Shown one piece after another: positions 29,948 through 44,789 of a stretch of 64,000 nucleotides of DNA. The stretch comes from Patescibacteria group bacterium (GTDB lineage: Bacteria > Patescibacteriota > Microgenomatia > Levybacterales > UBA12049): assembly GCA_038064195.1 (NCBI GenBank), contig JBBTTO010000002.1, forward strand, positions 269,356 to 333,355, given 5' to 3'. The position numbers and the translations under genes were made by a program. How positions within the stretch are numbered: the first letter of the stretch is position 1; the number at the start of each line of letters is the position of its first letter. The notes under the pieces are model-generated. The model ran no database searches and was not told the DNA's origin. It saw only the letters and a program-made list of their open reading frames with translations.

Positions 29948-32734
29948 ATGTTAGGAAATTTATTCAGCTCCCATAAAGACGAGAGGTCAATGCCGACTGA
30001 TCAAGCTCAACCTATGAACGATGATTCAACAGCAACTAATTCTCCGTTCCCACAGGATACAAATACCTCCTCACGAATGGATCCTGTCTTTCGTCAAAAT
30101 ATGTCTGCTCTCTCGCATTTAGACGCGAGGACTACGCAAGTGCTTCATCATGCTCAGGATGAGACAAAAAAGATCAGACAGGCACAAATCGAACCGGAGC
30201 AGCTACTCCTCGGGCTCCTCTACGACGAGGAGGTATTTAAGCTCTTTGAAGGATTTAATGTGGATGTCGCAAAGCTTGCTAAGGAGATTCAGAGTAAAGA
30301 ACAACTCGGTAACAGCACGACGCAGCCAACACTCAGCAACGCGACAACTGAGATCTTTGAGGCAGCATATAGAGATTGTAGAAATAGAAATGTCAGCTTC
30401 ATTTCACCTGAGGATCTTGTCGTCGCTCTCTTTGGTAGTGGCGGAAGGCTCGCGCAAAATCTATCTGAGAAAGGTATTAAGAAAGAGGCAATTAGTGAAA
30501 AACTCTCCAAGTCTGCGACTTATACAACCGGTAAGAAATCTATCCTTCAGGAATACGGCATTGATCTCACTGAGGAAGCCAAAGCAGGTAAACTGGATCC
30601 GATTGCCGGCAGGGACAAAGAAATTGATCGACTTGTTCACATACTTCTCCGTCGAACAAAAAACAATCCGATTATCATCGGTGAGGCAGGAGTAGGTAAG
30701 ACAGCAATTGTTGAAGGACTTGCTGAAGCAATTGCATCAGGGAGTGTTCCCGGGGGTCTCAATGACAAAAAGATTTTTCAGCTCGATCTAGCAGCTCTTG
30801 TCGCGGGCGCAAGTCATCGGGGGGAATTTGAAGAACGCCTTAAGGGTGTTATTAATGAAACAATAGCCTCACAAGGTCAGATCATACTTTTTATCGATGA
30901 GATCCATACATTGATCGGTGCAGGAGACACCGACGGGACGCTTGATGCTTCCAATATTATAAAGCCTCACTTAGCAAGGGGGCATATGCAAATCATCGGT
31001 ACTACAACAACTGCTGAATATCGTAAGCATTTTGAGAAGGATAAAGCCTTTGAGCGGCGTTTTCAGCCAATCTTAGCTGATGAGCCGAGTGAAGAGGCAG
31101 CAGTCGAGATGCTTAAAGTGCTTCGTCCTAAGTATGAAAAATTCCACAGTGTCACCATCCCTGATGATACATTGGTAGCTGCGGTTAAGTTATCAAAGAA
31201 ATATATCGGTGAGCGCTACCTTCCCGACAAAGCTGTGGATCTTATTGATGAAGCTGCAGCTGATGTGAAATTAGGCAGGACTGTAGTTAAAGAACAAAAA
31301 TCAGAGAATAATGATCAAAAAAAAGATAGCAATCTGGACGGTAACGGAATATCTGACTCACAGCAATCATCTTCACGTGCTACCGGTAATGAGGTTGTGA
31401 AATCAGATATAGAGAAAGTGGTCAGCAACTGGACAGGGATTCCCATCACCAAATTGACTGAGGATGAAAGTCAAAAACTCTTAAAACTTGAGGATAAGAT
31501 CCATGAGCGGCTTATTGATCAGGAAGAAGCTGTGACTGCTGTTGCTGAGGCAGTGAGGCGGGGAAGAATCGGCTTGGCTCCTGCCAACAGACCGATTGCT
31601 TCATTTGTTTTCTTAGGGCCGACAGGGGTAGGTAAAACTGAGTTGGCAAAATCTTTAGCTGAGTTACTTTTCGGTCGTGATGATGCTCTTATCAGACTTG
31701 ATATGAGTGAGTATATGGAAAAACATGAAGTAGCTAAGCTCATCGGTGCACCTCCCGGGTATGTAGGATATGAGGAAGGTGGTCAGTTGACTGAGGCAGT
31801 TCGGGCTAAGCCTTACTCAATTGTCCTCCTTGATGAAGTCGAGAAAGCGCATCCTGATGTCTTTAATATCTTACTTCAGCTCCTTGAGGACGGTCGTCTG
31901 ACTGACAATAAAGGCAATACGATTTCTTTTAAAAATACGATTGTTATTTGTACATCAAATATCGGTAGTGCTTTAATCCAACAACAATTAAGCGAGAAGG
32001 ATACAGGAGCAGCAACTACGCAGGAAGCTTTCAATGAGCAATTTGCTGAGCTTGCAGGCATGGTGACGACTGAACTGCGAAAATTCTTCCGACCTGAACT
32101 TCTTAATCGCTTTGATGATGTGGTCATATTTAAGCCGCTTCGCAAAGCTGATATGAGTAAAATTGCTAAGTTAGGGATTGCCAAGACAGCCAAACTTTTG
32201 GAAGAACAGGGGTATCATGTCCAGACGACAGACGGAGCGCTCGCAGAGTTGGCAAAAGAGGGGTACGATCCTGTCTATGGCGCGAGACCTCTTCGCCGCC
32301 TCATCCAGACAGCAATCGAAAACCAAATTGCCATGCTCTTAATTGCCAAACAATTTGTCCCTGGGGACACTATCGTTATTGATTATGACGCTGCAAAAGG
32401 GGCTTTTGCTTTCAGTAAGGGGAGCGGACAAAGTTTGGAAGGGACCGCGTCAAACGCGGCTGGCGCAAAGGGGACAAATGGGAGTGAAGCGGAAGCTGTT
32501 TCAGACGGGATGAATTCAAGCGACGATGCTACCCCTCAGTCTCCCGTTGCCGGAGCTGGGGAAGCGATGGCGCTTCCTGAGGAGACAAATGAGACACAAG
32601 GATCAAATGGGGCTCAACAGTTTGCCACACCTGATTTCAGTCCACCCTTTATGAAAACTGATGATACACAAACGAACGGTAATATGAATGCAGCCTCAAA
32701 CGGTATGGCCTCATCCTCAACTGCGACAAATTAG
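29948..32734 (+). CDS. ClpC/ClpA-like double-AAA+ Clp ATPase (both modules intact) with low-complexity C-terminal tail
   Basis: Clp_N repeats; D1 Walker A GEAGVGKT and Walker B FIDEIH; D2 GPTGVGKT / LLDEVEKAH; a short middle region with no long ClpB M-domain. The C-terminal ~110 aa are Ser/Ala/Gly/Asn-rich. The start codon is uncertain (several in-frame ATGs). Confidence 0.8.
32444..32482 (+). repeat. 39-nt element shared with dnaK 3' end (copy 2, inside clpC-like tail)
   Basis: ACCGCGTCAAACGCGGCTGGCGCAAAGGGGACAAATGGG, 35/39 identical to the dnaK copy and in the same reading frame. It encodes [13 protein letters not shown]. Confidence 0.7.
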
Positions 32735-32938: not shown

Positions 32939-33271
32939 ATGACTGCCTACCTTTTCTTGCCTATCTATTTTTTGGAGTTTTGGTTTGGTCAGGCTCCTTT
33001 ACGTCTTATCAGCCACTTTATAAAGATAAATCAGGCTTTTTTCCAGTTTTTCTCGGTGCCTTTACTTTTACGGACATTTTTCAGGCCAGCAAAGAACGAA
33101 TACAGAAAAGGTTTAATCGGTTTTTCAATCGGGATCGGCATTTTTTTGAAAAGTTGTGTTATTCTTACGGCTTTACTCCTATTTATCCCATTACTCCTGA
33201 GTGAAGTTATCCTGTTTTGTGGATTTTTGACCTTTCCGCTTATTACGTTAGCAGTCTTGCTTTGGAATTAA
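32939..33271 (+). CDS. Hypothetical small polytopic membrane protein
   Basis: 110 aa with 3-4 TM helices. The stop is 2 nt before the ATG of the membrane-anchored Clp paralog. Confidence 0.4.
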   Translation: MTAYLFLPIYFLEFWFGQAPLRLISHFIKINQAFFQFFSVPLLLRTFFRPAKNEYRKGLIGFSIGIGIFLKSCVILTALLLFIPLLLSEVILFCGFLTFPLITLAVLLWN

Positions 33272-33273
33272 CT

Positions 33274-35685
33274 ATGGATTATCATCTTTTAGCTTTTTAC
33301 AGTTTTTATAGGGCTTCGGGAGTTCGTCTTCTTCGCGCATTTGTTGCGAGTGGACTTTGCCTACTCATCGTCATTGGTATACTCGGGAGATTTTCTCCTT
33401 CATTTCCGCTTTTTCTTCTCAATATTCAAATCATGGTGGAAATTTTCTATCGCTACTATGTCTCAACCAGACAATCGACAAAGACAATTCAGGAAGTAGA
33501 TGAGTCAAATGTACTTCACGCAGTAACACTTCCTGCTATGGCAACACTCAGACAGAGTCGAACAAGTGCCGAGACGTTAAAGCGGCTTTTAACTTTTCCT
33601 CAGGTTGAATTTTTTCTCGCCCGATCAGGTATTAGCAGAAATGAATTGCCAATAAGTGAGATGGGAAATGCAGTTCTCCCGCAATTTGCTTACAAATTAG
33701 CTAAGGAATTGGGCGGTAAATATGTGACCACTATGGATCTTATGGCTGCCTATATATTACTTGAGGAAGAGAGAGCCCATTTACTTGTGAAGAAGAATCT
33801 GCAGGAAAAGGACATTTTGCAGATATTACGTTGGGCAAGATCAGCATATCCCGAGGAAGAACGACCCCGGTCTTTTGAAATAACAGTTGGCGGTGGAGGA
33901 ATTGGAGAATGGTTGGCAGTAGGTTGGACACCCGAGACGGCAGAATTTACTCGCAATTTTACCTATGAGATAACAAGTGATGATGTATCAATTGTCGGTC
34001 GTGAGGAAGAATATGAAAGACTGAAAGAAGAATTATTAAAGCTGGAGAATAATAACGTTGTTCTTATCGGAGAAGCAGGGGTCGGGAAAGAACAGCTGGT
34101 AAGAAAGCTGGCAATTGATTGTTATAAAAATGCTCTTGATCATGCTTTAGGTTATAAAACAATACTGGAGCTATTGGTCGGATCACTACTTGCAGGAGCG
34201 ACCTCTCAGGGAGAGCTTGAAGAACGGGTTAAGGCAATTATTGATGAGATATCTCATGCCGGTAATATTATCCTTTATATTCCCGAGTTCCAGGATATGA
34301 TCGGCGGTAGTAGCTTCTCACTTGATCTTTCAGGGGCACTTGCTCCCTATATGAAAGACGGTCAACTTCCGGTTATTGCCACCATGACTGAGGGGAACTA
34401 TAAAACCTATTTTGAGAAGAGTTCACTTCACGAACTCTTCTCACCCATTACTCTTAATGAGCCCACCCCTCAGCAGGCGGAAATAATGGTGATGGAAAAA
34501 ATAAGTGAGATTGAGAAAAACCAAAATTCGATTGTAACCTATGCTGCCCTTAAGATAGCTACTGAGTATGCCGGAAGATATACTCAAAACCTGTCACTTC
34601 CCGGGAGCGCGATTGAACTATTAGCTGATGCTATAAGTTCCTTACATGATACTAAAGACGCCGGTTTTTATGATAAAACACAAAAGCGTTTGCTGACAGA
34701 TACACTCGTCCTCAAAACAATTGAAGGAAGGACAAAGATAGCCTTATCTGAGCCCTCAGACAGCGAAAAAACATTATTACTGCATTTAGAAGATAGGCTC
34801 CATCAATCAATTATCGGACAGGATGAAGCCATCACTGTCATAGCTGAGGCTATGCGACGTCTCCGTTCAGGGGTTGAATCTGTGAACAGGCCAATTTCGT
34901 TTCTTTTTTTGGGACCGACAGGAGTCGGTAAGACAGAGACTGCCAAAACACTTTCCAAAGTCTACTTTGGCGGTGAGCAAAATATGATCAGACTCGACAT
35001 GAGTGAATATGCTGAACTAGATGGTCAAAAGCGTCTTTTGGGTGCACTTCCCGGGCAGGGGGAAGAACGAGGTGAGTTGACAGAAAAAGTTCGTGATCAT
35101 CCTTATTCATTGATATTGCTTGATGAATTTGAGAAAGCTCATCCTTCTATTTTGAGCTTGTTTCTTCAAATCCTTGATGACGGGCGAATCACCGATAACA
35201 AAGGCCGTACTATCTCATTTATAAATACAATTATTATCGCTACCTCCAATGCAGGATCTGAATATATTCGTGAGGCAGTAGAGAATGGCAAAGCAAGTAC
35301 CCCTACTTTTACCAAAGAGCTGTTAACGTACTTGCAGGAGCAAAATATTTTCAAACCGGAGTTACTCAACCGTTTTGACGGAGTCGTCACATTCCATCCT
35401 TTGACAGAACCTGAGATTGAAAAAGTGACCGCGATACTTCTTCGGGATCTGGCAGAAAAGATGCAGGAGAAGAATATTTCTCTTACCTATGCAAACAGTG
35501 TTTTCAAAAAAATTGCTCATGAGGCATATAATAAAGAGTTCGGTGCCCGTCCGATCAGGAGATACTTACAGGGGACGATAGAAGAACTTCTCGCGCAAGG
35601 TCTACTACAGAACAGTATTCACCATGGTGATCAAGTAACAGTTGACGTTGATAATAACAATAACTTTGTAATTGAGGGGAAATAA
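33274..35685 (+). CDS. Membrane-anchored Clp-family double-AAA+ ATPase with degenerate first AAA module
   Basis: Two N-terminal TM helices and a Clp_N-like domain. D1 Walker A is GEAGVGKE (Thr replaced by Glu) and Walker B is ILYIPEFQ (DE replaced by PE). D2 is intact ([12 protein letters not shown]; LLDEFEKAH; sensor region). The start was set at the ATG after the upstream ORF's stop. Confidence 0.7.
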   Translation: MDYHLLAFYSFYRASGVRLLRAFVASGLCLLIVIGILGRFSPSFPLFLLNIQIMVEIFYRYYVSTRQSTKTIQEVDESNVLHAVTLPAMATLRQSRTSAETLKRLLTFPQVEFFLARSGISRNELPISEMGNAVLPQFAYKLAKELGGKYVTTMDLMAAYILLEEERAHLLVKKNLQEKDILQILRWARSAYPEEERPRSFEITVGGGGIGEWLAVGWTPETAEFTRNFTYEITSDDVSIVGREEEYERLKEELLKLENNNVVLIGEAGVGKEQLVRKLAIDCYKNALDHALGYKTILELLVGSLLAGATSQGELEERVKAIIDEISHAGNIILYIPEFQDMIGGSSFSLDLSGALAPYMKDGQLPVIATMTEGNYKTYFEKSSLHELFSPITLNEPTPQQAEIMVMEKISEIEKNQNSIVTYAALKIATEYAGRYTQNLSLPGSAIELLADAISSLHDTKDAGFYDKTQKRLLTDTLVLKTIEGRTKIALSEPSDSEKTLLLHLEDRLHQSIIGQDEAITVIAEAMRRLRSGVESVNRPISFLFLGPTGVGKTETAKTLSKVYFGGEQNMIRLDMSEYAELDGQKRLLGALPGQGEERGELTEKVRDHPYSLILLDEFEKAHPSILSLFLQILDDGRITDNKGRTISFINTIIIATSNAGSEYIREAVENGKASTPTFTKELLTYLQEQNIFKPELLNRFDGVVTFHPLTEPEIEKVTAILLRDLAEKMQEKNISLTYANSVFKKIAHEAYNKEFGARPIRRYLQGTIEELLAQGLLQNSIHHGDQVTVDVDNNNNFVIEGK

Positions 35686-39638: not shown

Positions 39639-40736
39639 ATGGACAATCAAGCTCTACAAAAAATCCGCGAAACTATCAGTCGCAGCCAGCAGGTCAGCCT
39701 TGCTGTCGGTAAAAATCCGACTATCGATCAGATGGCCTCAGCTTTAGGTCTAGCTTTAACTCTGGAAGCACAAGGAAAAAAGGTCAGTGTTGTTTCCCCG
39801 ACCGCGCCAATTGTGGAAGTATCATCTCTTGTTGGTATTGATAAGGTCAAAACATCAAGTGAAGGATCAAGCGGAGACCTCGTCGTATCATTCCCTTATC
39901 GTGAAGGTGAAATTGAGAAAGTTTCCTACACAATTGATGACGGATTTCTCAACATCGTGGTTAAAGCAGGTGAGTCCGGTCTTACTTTCACTGAACGGGA
40001 TGTGACCTATAAACGTGGTACTGATAAGCCTGAACTTTTGATAACTATCGGTATTACAAGAATGGGTGATGTAACCGGACTTTTCTCAGAAGAGGCACTA
40101 AAAGACGTTATGATTATCAATATCGATAATAGTAATGATAACGAAGGTTATGGCGGTATGGTTTTGGTTTCACCTAAATTCTCATCTCTTTCAGAGCAAG
40201 TCGCTGACTTGATGCTCAACTTGGGATATGACATTGATATTGATGTTGCCCAAAATCTCCTTTCAGGTTTGACAACTGCAACAGATAATTTCCAGAGTCC
40301 CAATACTTCGTATCTGGCATTTGAGATAGCGGCAATTTTACTGAAGCGAGGAGCACGGAGAGATCGATCACGTGCCGTTGAAGCATCTCGACCGATGCAG
40401 CAGGCGCAACAACCAGCGCAGCAGCCCTTTCCCCGCCCGCAGCCACGACCTCAGCAGCAGGTTCAGCAACCACGACGTGAAGACAGACAGGATAGACGAG
40501 ATGTAATCCGCGATGCGTTGAGAGCTCAATCACAAGCACGGGGTACTGCGCAACCGCAAGTACAAGAACCGGTGCAACCATTAGAGCAAGACGTCCAGCC
40601 GATGCAGGTTCGTCAGGAACAACCACGTCCCGATCGGCCGGTAGCACAGCCTCAGGCCCAGAATAGATCCCAGGATCAAAAGCCGCCTTCTGATTGGTTA
40701 ACACCAAAGGTTTATAAGGGTTCTTCAAGCATCTAA
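39639..40736 (+). CDS. DHH-family phosphoesterase (NrnA-like) with Q/P-rich disordered C-terminal tail
   Basis: The N-terminal ~240 aa are DHH/DHHA1-like and sit in the usual nusA-infB neighbourhood. The C-terminal ~120 aa are Gln/Pro/Arg-rich low complexity. Confidence 0.5.
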   Translation: MDNQALQKIRETISRSQQVSLAVGKNPTIDQMASALGLALTLEAQGKKVSVVSPTAPIVEVSSLVGIDKVKTSSEGSSGDLVVSFPYREGEIEKVSYTIDDGFLNIVVKAGESGLTFTERDVTYKRGTDKPELLITIGITRMGDVTGLFSEEALKDVMIINIDNSNDNEGYGGMVLVSPKFSSLSEQVADLMLNLGYDIDIDVAQNLLSGLTTATDNFQSPNTSYLAFEIAAILLKRGARRDRSRAVEASRPMQQAQQPAQQPFPRPQPRPQQQVQQPRREDRQDRRDVIRDALRAQSQARGTAQPQVQEPVQPLEQDVQPMQVRQEQPRPDRPVAQPQAQNRSQDQKPPSDWLTPKVYKGSSSI

Positions 40737-40749
40737 GAGTATTAAGCGT

Positions 40750-40781
40750 CTTGTCATTTGCGAGGATCCGCTAGCTGGCGG
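40750..40781 (+). repeat. Left copy of ~32-bp imperfect inverted repeat flanking gene 40858..41979
   Basis: cttgtcatttgcgaggatccgctagctggcgg. The reverse complement of the right copy is cttgtcattgcgaggagtccgccagctggcgg (~29/32 identical). It contains the palindrome CCGC(C/T)AGCTGGCGG. Confidence 0.7.
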
Positions 40782-40857
40782 AGGCAAAGCAATCTGATAA
40801 AAACTTTTCCATATAACTCAATTTGACGAGTAGCTTCATTTCTGAAATACTAAACTT

Positions 40858-41979
40858 ATGGATCCGCAATCCTCACCACCACCAACACCTATCGCAAATA
40901 CTGAACACTCACCAGTTTCACAACAGCCACCAGTTTTACCTCCCTCAAATCCTCATTCCCGTAGAAAGCTAATAGTTTATGGTTTTATCGCTGTAGTAGG
41001 TTTAATCGCTCTCCTCGTGGGAGCCTATACTCTCGGAGTCCAAAAATCACCAAAAAACGTAATCCCAGCCACTCCCACACCGGTCAAGAAAGCCGCCGAA
41101 ATAGACCCCACAGCAAACTGGAAGAGATATACTAGTGGTCGTTATAGTTTCAAATATCCTCCTGCGGCAGAACTTGAGGAAAAGCTTGACGGTTCTGTAA
41201 AAGTTTCTATGTCCGGTGCTGATTTCAAATCCACGGCAACATTCAGTGAAGTAAAATACACCGGGAAAATTGGAGACTTTGTAAGAGAAAAAGCAAAAGA
41301 TACTTCAAAATACACATTCCAAGGACCAGCTCAACCGATTAATTTTAGAGAAGGGTATGCCTATTCTGAAAAAGATTCAACTGTAAATCATGCTTACATA
41401 TATTTAGACAATACAACCGCTTTGTATATAGAGTATAAAACTCAAGGAATTGATCGAACGCTTGATGACATATTCCTGTCATTAGAATTCACCAACCCAG
41501 ATGAGGCTGTTGATACATCAAATTGGAAAACCTACTCACCTCCAGACAAATATTTCTCAGTTAAATATCCAGCAAACTGGATTATTGAGAGCAATCTAGA
41601 AAAATACCCATCAATACAAGATGCTGAAGAAGTAAGTGGCAATCACTTCTCTGTCTGGAGTACAGACCAGTCAAAATTAGGTAGTCAATCTGTGCCTAGT
41701 GATGAGTTAAAAGTAGAAGCAAATGTATATACAAATATTACACAATCACTCGATAATTGGGCAAAAGCAGCAAATGGAGAAATTTTAAAGTCAGAAAATA
41801 TTACAATAAATTCAAAATCAGCTAAAAAAGTATGGAGGAAAGATGTCCTTGGATTCCAGCATTTATCTATTTATTATAAAGACGGAAATAAAGGTTTAAG
41901 TATTGATTCATGGCCATACAACTCTATATATTCAAAAGAATTCGACGCAATTGCAAAAAGCTTCAAATTCGCCGACTGA
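40858..41979 (+). CDS. Hypothetical membrane-anchored protein with Pro-rich N-tail and two internal repeat domains
   Basis: 373 aa. Pro-rich N-terminus, a TM (LIVYGFIAVVGLIALLVGAYTL) and two copies of an NWK.Y....YF..KYP-containing domain. It is flanked by inverted repeats. Confidence 0.45.
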   Translation: MDPQSSPPPTPIANTEHSPVSQQPPVLPPSNPHSRRKLIVYGFIAVVGLIALLVGAYTLGVQKSPKNVIPATPTPVKKAAEIDPTANWKRYTSGRYSFKYPPAAELEEKLDGSVKVSMSGADFKSTATFSEVKYTGKIGDFVREKAKDTSKYTFQGPAQPINFREGYAYSEKDSTVNHAYIYLDNTTALYIEYKTQGIDRTLDDIFLSLEFTNPDEAVDTSNWKTYSPPDKYFSVKYPANWIIESNLEKYPSIQDAEEVSGNHFSVWSTDQSKLGSQSVPSDELKVEANVYTNITQSLDNWAKAANGEILKSENITINSKSAKKVWRKDVLGFQHLSIYYKDGNKGLSIDSWPYNSIYSKEFDAIAKSFKFAD

Positions 41980-42001
41980 ATAACAGAGATTGCCACGTCG
42001 C

Positions 42002-42033
42002 CCGCCAGCTGGCGGACTCCTCGCAATGACAAG
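42002..42033 (+). repeat. Right copy of inverted repeat flanking gene 40858..41979
   Basis: ccgccagctggcggactcctcgcaatgacaag, the reverse complement of the left copy with 3 differences. Confidence 0.7.
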
Positions 42034-42098
42034 CTACGAGCCACACGCACCCCTTGATACTTGTGATACCCTCAATTATTATGCTATAATACACTCCT

Positions 42099-42368
42099 AT
42101 GCCACTTTCAGTGACACAAAAACAAGATATTATTAAAGAATTTCAGACAGTCGATGGTGATACAGGAAGTCCCGAAGTACAGATTGCACTTCTTACCCAT
42201 CGTATCACAAGACTTTCTGAGCACTTGAAAGATCATGCTCATGATGTCCACAGTCGTCGGGGATTACTCTCGATGATCGCAAAGAGACGCCGACTCCTTA
42301 ACTTTTTAGTTAAAGTTGATAAAACAAGGTCTTCTGATATAAAGAAAAAGATCGGATTGAAAGATTAA
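42099..42368 (+). CDS. rpsO: 30S ribosomal protein S15
   Basis: 89 aa with conserved S15 helices (..GSPEVQIALLTHRITRLSEHLKDHAHDVHSRRGLL..). Confidence 0.9.
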   Translation: MPLSVTQKQDIIKEFQTVDGDTGSPEVQIALLTHRITRLSEHLKDHAHDVHSRRGLLSMIAKRRRLLNFLVKVDKTRSSDIKKKIGLKD

Positions 42369-42371
42369 GAA

Positions 42372-44789
42372 ATGGAAAAAGCCTCCCTTACACTTGATTT
42401 TGCAGGTAAGATACTGACATTCTCAACAGGTCACCTTGCTCCTCAAGCTACGTCATCTGTCCTTGCCCAATTGGGCGATACAGTCGTGCTGGTAACTGTT
42501 GTTGCCGGTAAGATCCGTGATGATATTGATTATTTCCCACTTAGTGTCGAATACACAGAAAAGCTCTATGCAGGCGGACGTATTAAAGGCAGTAGATGGG
42601 TAAAACGAGAAGGCAGGCCGACAGATGATGCTATCCTTATCGGACGACTCATTGATCGTTCAATCCGTCCTCTTTTTCCTAAAGAATATAAAAATGAAGT
42701 TCAGGTAGTGGTGACTGTCTTATCAGTTGACGGTGAGCATGAGCCTGATATTTTAGCACTCAATGCAGTATCGGCTGCACTTGCTATGTCACCGATTCCG
42801 TGGAAAGGACCAATTGGTGCTATCCGTATGGGTACGGTTAAAGATATTGAGTCCGGTAAGTTAGGCCTTATCCACAACCCGACCTCACCTGAGAGTGCTG
42901 TCTCAGAACTTGATATTGTCGTTTCACAGAGTAAAGATTTGACAGTCATGCTCGAAGCAGGAGCACTCCAAGTCCCCGAAGAAACAGTCCATGAAGCAAT
43001 CGTCGCGGCTCACACTGAGACACAAAAAATGATTAAAGCTATCGAAGATCTTGTTAAAAAGTCAGGTCAGACAAAGCATGAAGTTAAGCCAAATACCAAA
43101 CAAAATGACGCCATCGCCATCATTGAGAAGGGGTACAAAAAAGAAGTTGAGGATTTGATTGCGGGCAGAGCTAACAAAGAAGGTTCGGGTTCAGAGACAG
43201 ATGAACTCATTGCTAAGATTTTGGAGCAGGAAAAAATTGATAATCCAGAGACAGAGATTGATAAAAAGATTTTAGGCAAAGCGCTTGAATATGTGATGTT
43301 TAAGATTATCCGTAACAACGTTGTCAAAAAACAGGCCAGACCTGACGGCCGCAAGGTAGATGAAATCCGCACCATTAATGTTGAGTCGGGTATTTTGCCT
43401 CGTACTCATGGCTCAGCGCTTTTTGAGCGTGGCCTCACACAGGCACTCACCATTGTAACGCTTGGTTCTCCCCGCATGGAGCAGCTCATTGAATCAGCCG
43501 AAGGTGAAGAATCCAAACGCTACATTCATCACTACTCAGGGCCACCCTATTCAGTCGGAGAAGCAGGCCGTATCGGTACTCCATCCAGGCGCGAAATCGG
43601 TCATGGGGCATTGGCTGAGCGTGCGCTACAGGCAGTTATCCCAACTCAGGATAAGTTTCCTTACACAATCAGGATTGTTTCTGAAGTCCTGTCACAGAAC
43701 GGCTCAAGTTCAATGGCTTCAACGTGCGGTTCAACGCTTGCCCTTATGGATGCCGGTGTGCCGATTCTTAAACCGGTCGCAGGTATTTCAATCGGTATGA
43801 TGTCAAATGACGAAGACTACGTATTGTTGACAGACATTATCGGCCTTGAGGATTTCTCAGGCGATATGGATTTCAAAGTAGCCGGGACAGATAGTGGCGT
43901 AACAGCAATTCAGCTGGATGTTAAGGTGCCTGGTCTGACTGATAAGCAAATTAAAGAAATTTTTGAGAGAGCTAAGTCTGCTCGTATGAGTATTTTGGAG
44001 AAAATGCTTGCGGTGATGCCTGAGACTCGCAAGGCTATCTCAACTTATGCTCCAAAGATTGAGCAAATTCAAATCCCGGTTGACAAGATCGGTGAGTTGA
44101 TCGGTCCGGGCGGAAAGAATATCAAAAATATCATCGCGACAACCGGCGCGCAGGTCGATGTCGAGGATGACGGTAAAGTTACCATCTCAGGCACTGATCA
44201 GGAAGCAGTCCAAAAAGCAGTTGACTGGATCACAGGTATTATGCGTGAGGTACAAGTCGGGGAAGAATTTGAAGGACCGGTCAAGCGTATCCTTCCTTTC
44301 GGAGCCTTCGTTGAAATACTTCCCGGTAAAGAAGGAATGGTTCATGTCTCAAAAATGGGGCAAGGATTTGTCAATAGTCCTGAAGACGTTGTCACACTTG
44401 GTCAAGTTGTCAAAGTTAAGGTTTATGAGATTGACGATCAGGGTAGAATTAATTTGACAATGAAATTCGGTGAGGCAGAGGGAACTAATGAGCCATCGGG
44501 CAGCGGTCCTGCGGGCGGGAGTGGCCCTCGTCGGGAGTACTCAGCCGCCGGTCCTAGTCGTGATCGCAGACCGGGCGGAAGTCGACCTTTTGAGCGTCGT
44601 TCTGACAGCAGACGTCCTTTTGAGCGTCGTCCCGAAGGCAGTACCTATAATCGTGAACCACGTCCTTTTTCAGCTCCAGCTGCTGAAGGTCCGGGAGCAC
44701 CTGCCAGGCATCCATTATCAGCTCAATTTGAAAGAGAGAGACGCGAGAAGGCTCGAACATCAGGTCCCCGACGTCGAACGCACTATTAA
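42372..44789 (+). CDS. pnp: Polyribonucleotide nucleotidyltransferase (PNPase) with Arg/Pro/Gly-rich C-terminal extension
   Basis: Two RNase PH domains, KH and S1 (..GMVHVSKMG..), plus a ~100-aa basic tail containing the tandem SRPFERR / SRRPFERR repeat. Confidence 0.9.
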   Translation: MEKASLTLDFAGKILTFSTGHLAPQATSSVLAQLGDTVVLVTVVAGKIRDDIDYFPLSVEYTEKLYAGGRIKGSRWVKREGRPTDDAILIGRLIDRSIRPLFPKEYKNEVQVVVTVLSVDGEHEPDILALNAVSAALAMSPIPWKGPIGAIRMGTVKDIESGKLGLIHNPTSPESAVSELDIVVSQSKDLTVMLEAGALQVPEETVHEAIVAAHTETQKMIKAIEDLVKKSGQTKHEVKPNTKQNDAIAIIEKGYKKEVEDLIAGRANKEGSGSETDELIAKILEQEKIDNPETEIDKKILGKALEYVMFKIIRNNVVKKQARPDGRKVDEIRTINVESGILPRTHGSALFERGLTQALTIVTLGSPRMEQLIESAEGEESKRYIHHYSGPPYSVGEAGRIGTPSRREIGHGALAERALQAVIPTQDKFPYTIRIVSEVLSQNGSSSMASTCGSTLALMDAGVPILKPVAGISIGMMSNDEDYVLLTDIIGLEDFSGDMDFKVAGTDSGVTAIQLDVKVPGLTDKQIKEIFERAKSARMSILEKMLAVMPETRKAISTYAPKIEQIQIPVDKIGELIGPGGKNIKNIIATTGAQVDVEDDGKVTISGTDQEAVQKAVDWITGIMREVQVGEEFEGPVKRILPFGAFVEILPGKEGMVHVSKMGQGFVNSPEDVVTLGQVVKVKVYEIDDQGRINLTMKFGEAEGTNEPSGSGPAGGSGPRREYSAAGPSRDRRPGGSRPFERRSDSRRPFERRPEGSTYNREPRPFSAPAAEGPGAPARHPLSAQFERERREKARTSGPRRRTHY

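Follow-up and report, generated by a model that had tools for sequence, protein, structure and literature searches.

An inserted gene cassette between inverted hairpin repeats in a patescibacterial genome and its probable relation to Ssn nuclease units

The stretch of 64,000 nucleotides (nt) analysed here, called the window, covers positions 269,356 to 333,355 of contig JBBTTO010000002.1 (assembly GCA_038064195.1) and comes from the metagenome-assembled genome of a groundwater member of Patescibacteria, whose nearest named relatives are Levybacteria. Between a gene for a protein of 365 amino acids (aa) and the rpsO gene, it carries a block of about 1.34 kb in which a single gene for a membrane-anchored protein, the cargo, is enclosed by two inverted hairpin repeats, the arms, each opening with a short unpaired tag, (C/T)TGTC. 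The block is an insertion, both arms belong to a dispersed family of repeats with a covarying structure, this family is linked to genes of GIY-YIG (Ssn) nucleases, and the layout of the cassette matches that of ssn units. We interpret the arms, with a probability of about 0.7, as inverted Ssn-related hairpin repeats that bound an inserted cassette with a surface-protein cargo in the layout of an ssn unit.

Insertion of the block upstream of rpsO

Five relatives of the window lineage were compared, ranked by identity of their PNPase (L130, 96%; L133, 81%; L131 and L132, 80% each; L134, 77%). In all five, the order of genes for a ClpB-like protein, NusA, IF2, a 352-373 aa protein, rpsO and pnp is kept, a spacer of 40-46 nt separates the upstream gene from rpsO, the cargo gene is absent, and no copy of the repeat is detected in their contigs with the covariance model R1 of the family. 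In DNA, the closest relative, L130, is 85.5% identical for the upstream gene, 93% for rpsO and 90.5% for pnp; homology ends with the stop codon that closes the upstream gene and restarts at TGCTATAAT (window position 42081), with a 23-nt spacer in L130 in place of the block. The inserted block, as delimited by this comparison and by the spacer of the five relatives, spans 40737-42080 (about 1,344 nt, no strand assigned). Since the block is absent from five syntenic relatives, it was gained as an insertion by the window lineage, and the sequence comparison places the insertion of these 1.34 kb between the 365-aa gene and rpsO after the split from the closest sampled relative. The original prediction of a mobilised cassette, for which presence or absence in relatives had been named as the check, is thus supported, since gene and both repeats are lacking in 5/5 relatives with the flanking order kept.

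The insertion extends into the promoter of rpsO. Past the right arm, 47 nt without homology to L130 (42034-42080, + strand) supply a new -35 box for rpsO (TTGATA / TTGTGA), replacing the TTGCGR that in the relatives is located 17 nt upstream of a conserved TATAAT; this -10 box (42085-42090, + strand) is the first ancestral sequence after the insertion. In L130, the 40-nt spacer (1644-1683) contains CATTGCGAG, identical to 9 nt of the tag side of the repeat (compare window 40754-40764), and overlapping there with the -35 box of the rpsO promoter (TTGCGA-17-TATAAT). This short sequence may represent a scar or a preferred target, or it may coincide with the -35 box by chance. As a possible deletion scar, it would favour an ancestral state in which gene and repeats were present and later deleted in the relatives. 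However, such a history demands that the sister lineage and all four outgroup lineages lost the block, CATTGCGAG overlaps a conserved -35 box (TTGCGR-17-TATAAT) that is present in the outgroups too, and the cargo gene has a low GC content and no close homologues, all of which make ancestral presence very improbable.

Throughout the population, the block was found in one orientation (9 places from 19 contigs and 18 contigs with the upstream gene), and no cassette-free allele was found in the same population. An invertible, phase-variable cassette, in which a site-specific recombinase acts on the inverted repeats, had also been suggested and would be in line with inverted repeats enclosing a surface-protein gene together with its promoter. 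Against it stand the single orientation in all contigs from several samples, the absence of a recombinase among the nine neighbouring genes scanned (0/9) and the nature of the repeat family, which spans many phyla and is linked to a nuclease, not to a recombinase. Furthermore, a gene flipped together with its own promoter would undergo no switch in expression. This part of the original prediction has been dropped, since inversion is hardly credible here.

The arms and their repeat family

The two arms are present in inverted orientation at 40750-40781 and 42002-42033, with 75% complementarity when no gaps are allowed and with 30 of 33 identical columns (about 91%) when two 1-base indels are admitted, in agreement with the imperfect inverted repeats of ~32 bp and ~90% identity proposed at the outset. 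The repeats also run past their palindrome as had been claimed, but 32 nt proved too short an estimate: the full arms measure about 48 nt each, with 39 of 50 columns identical between 40750-40797 and the reverse complement of 41985-42033, and both share GCAATCT, a second conserved block located beyond the palindrome. Inverted local alignment of the two intergenic regions gave a best score of 49, whereas 1000 shuffles averaged 14.9 and peaked at 29. The left hairpin repeat (40750-40797, tag strand +), delimited by R1, sequence and fold, reads CTTGTC-ATTTGC-GAG-[GATCCGCTAGCTGGCGGAG]-GCAAA-GCAAT-CTGA, and the right one (41985-42033, tag strand -), delimited by R1 and fold, reads CTTGTC-ATTGC-GAG-[GAGTCCGCCAGCTGGCGGGCGA]-CGTG-GCAAT-CTCT; hence, the tags point outward in the window. 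A near-perfect palindrome had been noted in each repeat, and a palindrome scan found it perfect at the apex of the right arm (CCGCCAGCTGGCGG, 42002-42015) and with one mismatch at that of the left (CCGCTAGCTGGCGG, 40768-40781), neither having a strand; no further copy of CCGCCAGCTGGCGG with up to two mismatches occurs in the 64-kb window, for a chance expectation of 0.04. The left arm is slightly degenerate due to this mismatch and an additional T in the outer stem. Two short-read contigs (the start of L007 and the end of L258, both from ERR3858128) are broken in the palindrome of the left arm, at about window 40774 and 40803, most likely because a palindromic k-mer misled the assembler, and not through structural variation.

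With the covariance model R1, the left arm (40747-40799) scored 36.5 bits (E 1.3e-8) and the right arm (41983-42036) 50.4 bits (E 8e-13). These were the two sole copies in the window, the next best match reaching 11.5 bits (E 0.5), and none was found in 10 kb more of the same contig, which gives two copies per ~74 kb. Both arms fold into an outer and an inner stem and share the elements TGTC-ATT...AAT-C, together with a central hairpin that was found in 0 of ~125 copies retrieved from other genomes. The arms have no match in Rfam, whether the whole window is scanned at gathering thresholds or 40600-42200 with E values of up to 10, and literature searches with the raw repeat sequence returned primer coincidences only.

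Across bacteria, GTDB species representatives were searched with the loose pattern AGATTGC-N10-40-CCTCGCAA-N0-1-TGACAAG, which contains the two conserved blocks and a free centre. At least 120 stretches matched, as compared to about 4 that we estimate by chance for the whole collection, and those listed include Chloroflexota, Patescibacteria, Fibrobacterota, Planctomycetota, Bacillota, Pseudomonadota, Bacteroidota, Omnitrophota, Nitrospirota and others. The arms had been likened to a REP/MITE-like pair (MITE, miniature inverted-repeat transposable element), which was right in kind, given this dispersed hairpin-repeat family of many phyla; the further proposal that many dispersed copies would mark a generic REP element gave a mixed answer, the family being dispersed across bacteria, yet represented by two copies only in ~74 kb here. 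The consensus of the tag strand is 5'-(C/T)TGTC-ATTGC-GAG-[variable hairpin]-CGNR-GCAAT-CTC, made up of the tag (C/T)TGTC, the outer stem ATTGC/GCAAT, a conserved internal loop (GAG / CGNR), an apical hairpin that differs between copies, and a C immediately 3' of the stem. Copies are 32-62 nt in length, 36 nt being commonest.

The outer stem is uninformative for covariation, because it is fixed by the search pattern. The inner stem covaries among 70 members, with 60 cells changed on both sides as compared to 21 in shuffles, and none of 500 shuffles reached 60. In the commonest form, the tag strand has tandem G.A pairs where its complement has mismatches, and its triloop is GNA in 19 of 23 minimal copies. 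The sequence GCGNAGC is an unusually stable DNA mini-hairpin. These features of the tag strand point to one strand that may act as single-stranded DNA (ssDNA). The loose pattern was also found in 37 viral contigs (IMG/VR, L216-L252), many of them just 4-7 kb long and thus about as large as small ssDNA phages. For a motif that is cut in single-stranded form, this deserves attention, although the contigs could be misclassified as viral.

Relative to neighbouring open reading frames (ORFs), family members have no orientation bias (upstream 49 + and 50 -, downstream 51 + and 56 -), which argues against a strand-specific role in the mRNAs of the neighbours. This bears on the explanation that the hairpins act chiefly at the RNA level, as bidirectional terminators or stabilisers of 3' ends, their similarity reflecting a common hairpin type. 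The arms indeed begin 13 nt and 5 nt past stop codons, and in other bacteria hairpins of the REP type are known to stabilise the 3' ends of mRNAs (review, PMC3733652). However, neither hairpin is followed by a T-run, a terminator scan of 40400-42400 returned 0 sites, the unpaired flanks are conserved across phyla, the well-paired strand of the right arm is antisense to the genes, and the SsnA nuclease of Neisseria does not bind RNA (PMC11893778). A principal function in RNA is thus quite unlikely, although a terminator role could be a side effect.

Linkage to GIY-YIG nuclease genes and comparison with known repeats

In Neisseria, the repeat NTS is an extended dRS3 (CGTCATTCCCGCG...GCGGGAATC), and NTS and Ssn-related motifs (SRM) flank the ssnA gene (Chenal et al., Nat Commun 2025, PMC11893778), whose product is a 94-aa single-domain GIY-YIG protein. 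SsnA binds its motif only as ssDNA and on one strand, cutting a few nt 5' of the motif; NTS copies cluster near membrane-protein genes, and transformation by NTS-bearing DNA is reduced by SsnA (PMC11893778).

In our repeat family, the first link to GIY-YIG proteins came from a small ORF beside one copy and a phmmer search seeded from that ORF, a link that all-against-all BLASTP of neighbouring ORFs at 1e-8 had missed. Three of ~120 pattern-anchored loci listed have a GIY-YIG gene of ~90 aa (Pfam PF01541) between inverted copies, and no other recurrent neighbour gene was found among the 120 loci listed. In a reverse test, 80 GIY-YIG relatives were picked from JGI metagenomes without reference to the repeat. 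An R1 copy was located within 200 nt of 71 of these 80 genes, on both sides in 53, and 179 of 208 R1 matches were within 250 nt of the gene. The nearest upstream copy was '-' in 44/61 and the nearest downstream copy '+' in 55/63, which defines the usual layout of an ssn unit as '-' copy, gene, '+' copy, with tags outward. A model-free k-mer count found GTCATTGC in 50/80 upstream and 57/80 downstream flanks, 8-mers containing GCAATC in 47-51 of the 80 flanks, and, as tags in the flanks of the 80 genes, TGTC (65) and CGTC (33).

Between the repeat-linked GIY-YIG proteins and the product of an N. gonorrhoeae GIY-YIG gene flanked by canonical NTS, identity is 48-51% (E about 1e-27), the comparison being made with NZ_CP119142.1, a 2.17-Mb sequence labelled as plasmid in PLSDB but evidently a chromosome. 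The repeat-linked proteins have no NCBIfam name, no convincing match was obtained among solved structures (the best, E 0.022, being a UPF0213 protein), and literature searches on GIY-YIG with REPIN/RAYT, or on YhbQ/COG2827, returned nothing direct. In N. gonorrhoeae, the repeats at L215:452-480, 868-895, 941-968 and 1024-1052 have their tags towards the ssn gene, as do those at L025:6269-6668. Regular tandem arrays of the hairpin repeats occur beside some GIY-YIG genes as well as in Hanstruepera flava (L159:2338-2921; L143:2436-2840; L139:1107-1866; L035:3335-3981), with periods of ~93, 123, 239 and 250-340 nt and up to 7 copies.

The spacing and polarity of copies also bear on an explanation by two independent events, in which unrelated horizontal transfer or illegitimate recombination brought in the gene, and the new intergenic regions were then colonised separately by two REP-like hairpins. 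Genes flanked by copies are trivial in repeat-rich genomes (L028, L055), where almost every intergenic region has a copy, and separate arrivals would accord with arms that stand off the exact edges of the indel and with a left arm that is more degenerate than the right (36.5 versus 50.4 bits). In the window, however, there are two copies in ~74 kb, located in adjacent intergenic regions, for which we estimate ~3% under random adjacency among ~60 regions, the central hairpin common to both arms is absent from copies of other genomes, and none of the five relatives represents an intermediate state. Furthermore, the polarity is '-...+' as is typical of ssn units, not '+...-' as seen between neighbouring doublets. 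R1 identified 210 copies in 100 of the family loci listed, the extra copies being mainly inverted doublets (87/97 '-+' neighbours less than 100 nt apart), and outside ssn units only 2/28 neighbour pairs with a gene-sized gap (600-2000 nt) have the order '-' then '+', both with weak matches. A fuzzy-regex scan was noisy (303 real versus 18 shuffle matches) and was used for spacing and orientation only, with a cross-check by eye against R1. Overall, independent events appear unlikely.

The arms and their family resemble SRM/NTS as imperfect palindromes or hairpins of 20-50 nt, oriented with (C/T)GTC before a stem that starts with AT and with a C after the stem, in having copies on both sides of a ~90-aa single-domain GIY-YIG gene and apparently one active strand, and in bracketing membrane-protein genes ('NTS-Gene-NTS'). 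They differ in their stem, which is ATTGC...GCAAT here versus ATTCCCGC...GCGGGAAT in NTS and is split here by the GAG/CGNR internal loop, with an apical hairpin of variable length (total 32-62 nt). Tags are outward in the window and in most units of this subtype, whereas they are inward in Neisseria; the host belongs to Patescibacteria, with two copies and no ssn gene seen in 74 kb; and the entire repeat-gene-repeat block is an indel with respect to relatives, which is not reported in PMC11893778.

A second group of relatives are the CGTC/TGTC-tagged REPs, which have a stem starting with A-T pairs, a 3-nt tail and no known transposase, and include the Neisseria dRS3 (Di Nocera et al., BMC Genomics 2013, PMC3733652). 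Under the tag criterion of that study, a terminal CGTC, TGTC or CCTC, the arms qualify by TGTC followed by ATTGC. With these REPs, among them Neisseria dRS3 and Rickettsia RPE-4/6, they share an unpaired CGTC/TGTC tag, an A-T start of the stem (positions 1-2), a short unpaired tail, frequent inverted dimers, an intergenic location and the lack of a tyrosine transposase. However, the REPs have a continuous stem of 8-9 bp, a loop of 4-5 nt and mostly a CCA tail and are abundant per genome, in contrast to the 5-bp outer stem, internal loop, variable inner hairpin, CTC/CTG tail and two copies in ~74 kb found here. Based on tag, AT start of the stem, C after the stem and ssn link, the arms are assigned as a variant of SRM/NTS and not as a canonical member, and likewise as a variant of the CGTC/TGTC-tagged REPs.

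Other systems are more distant. REP/REPIN-RAYT and IS200/IS605 elements (HUH Y1) likewise have short hairpins, mostly in inverted doublets, flanking the gene of the presumed acting enzyme, with recognition of ssDNA hairpins and no target-site duplication, but here the GTAG tag and the Y1 transposase are lacking and the linked enzyme is a GIY-YIG nuclease. Cassettes of integrons resemble the block in having one promoter-proximal gene and an imperfect hairpin read as folded ssDNA, with conserved outer bases and a variable centre; they differ in having one attC per cassette versus two inverted copies here and in their core sites RYYYAAC / GTTRRRY, and no IntI integrase or attI is present here. 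An insertion sequence (IS), a composite transposon or a MITE in the strict sense was rejected, as there is no target-site duplication, the arms are off the ends of the indel (13 / 47 nt) and the sole ORF encodes a PsbP-like membrane protein.

Cargo gene and possible role of the arms

As had been predicted, the arms bracket exactly one gene, the single ORF between them (40858-41979, + strand) encoding 373 aa. Its product is Pro-rich at the N-terminus and has a hydrophobic anchor, and residues 219-371 form a C-terminal PsbP_2-like domain (PF18933, E 7e-8); hence, the description as a Pro-rich, membrane-anchored protein holds, while the two internal repeat domains also ascribed to it found little support, only the start motif TxNWKxY...KYP being repeated. 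The protein is a near-orphan, whose best relative is 49% identical in the C-terminal domain only (full HMMER scan), with no close homologue among 5.8 billion proteins and no paralogue in the window; its family is large and fast-evolving (890 matches at E<1e-3). The 3' half of the gene has a GC content of 0.34 versus 0.42-0.47 in flanking genes. A promoter-like site, TTGACG-17-AATACT (40823-40851, + strand), found by a consensus scan as a 9/12 consensus match only, ends 6 nt 5' of the ATG. Upstream of both cargo and rpsO, a -10-like box ends 6-8 nt ahead of the ATG and a Shine-Dalgarno sequence is lacking (40845-40860; 42085-42101), an arrangement that for rpsO is kept in the relatives and which suggests that both transcripts may be leaderless.

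The neighbouring genes encode NusA, a short IF2, the 365-aa protein, S15, PNPase, a Lon-like AAA protein and RNase J. The predicted identities of NusA, IF2, S15 and PNPase were confirmed by Pfam, whereas the label 'nrnA-like' given to the 365-aa upstream gene (39639-40736) is unverified, since no Pfam match was obtained even at E up to 10; its position is conserved in 5/5 relatives (352-373 aa). IF2 is of a short, 483-aa form, and two ClpB-like genes stand in tandem (29948-32734, 33217-35685). No tRNA or tmRNA genes were found in the 64-kb window, which leaves no tRNA-linked integration there.

Several observations weigh against the interpretation of the arms as Ssn-related repeats bounding a cassette. 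The arms are not at the exact edges of the indel, 13 nt preceding the left arm and 47 nt following the right one, and no target-site duplication or direct repeat flanks them. Protein homology searches with the cargo revealed neither a donor nor a second copy of the cassette, no ssn gene is present in the window and the additional 10 kb, and the cassette contains no ssn remnant. The geometry of the tags is not uniform in the family, being inward in Neisseria and L025 and outward in most metagenomic units. The published SRM pattern, HGTCWYN(0-2)YYVSBRHN(0-5)WNVSBRGN(0-2)RNCYNB, matches canonical NTS but 0/2 arms and 0/70 family members. Folding energies of the arms are not exceptional as compared to shuffles with either RNA or DNA parameters (z -0.8 to -1.5); because they are not significantly under those of shuffles, the structural evidence was taken from covariation. 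Finally, NTS-ssnA-NTS has been called IS-like, with mobility of Ssn units put forward as a hypothesis only (PMC11893778, Discussion). The sole match to the SRM pattern in the window, at 33325, is within a ClpB-like gene, is not like a hairpin repeat and is probably due to chance, 0.15 matches being expected.

If the arms are Ssn-related repeats as we propose, each would fold on its tag strand when the DNA becomes single-stranded during replication, uptake or repair, and a cognate Ssn nuclease would nick just outside both ends, near 40740-40749 on the + strand and 42036-42045 on the - strand. Through such nicking, the block may have been moved in the manner of an IS, or recombination across the surface-protein gene may now be limited, as with NTS-gene-NTS in Neisseria. 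That an Ssn nuclease mobilised the block is inferred only. In a very small, repeat-poor genome, a resident population of repeats is unlikely, which points to an import of the block as a whole.

Ssn nucleases and their motifs were described only in 2025, and the cassette, with a non-nuclease cargo that the relatives lack, bears on the mobility of such units. New here are a widespread subtype of the ATTGCGAG type with a bipartite stem, extending from Chloroflexota to Patescibacteria and missed by the published pattern, and the comparison of a filled site with empty sites, in which a non-nuclease gene occupies the layout of most ssn units. A bolder extension, which we consider doubtful, is that Ssn-related hairpins mark, in pairs, the two termini of a true mobile element, which moves via ssDNA in a GIY-YIG-dependent manner and could carry passengers other than ssn. 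If so, the window would represent a natural filled site and the five relatives the empty sites, and this would be the first comparative evidence that the NTS-ssnA-NTS architecture can deliver cargo, in this case a surface protein into a minimal genome of Patescibacteria. If the arms are cut by a cognate Ssn, the known range of pairs of a sequence-specific ssDNA nuclease and its site would be extended.

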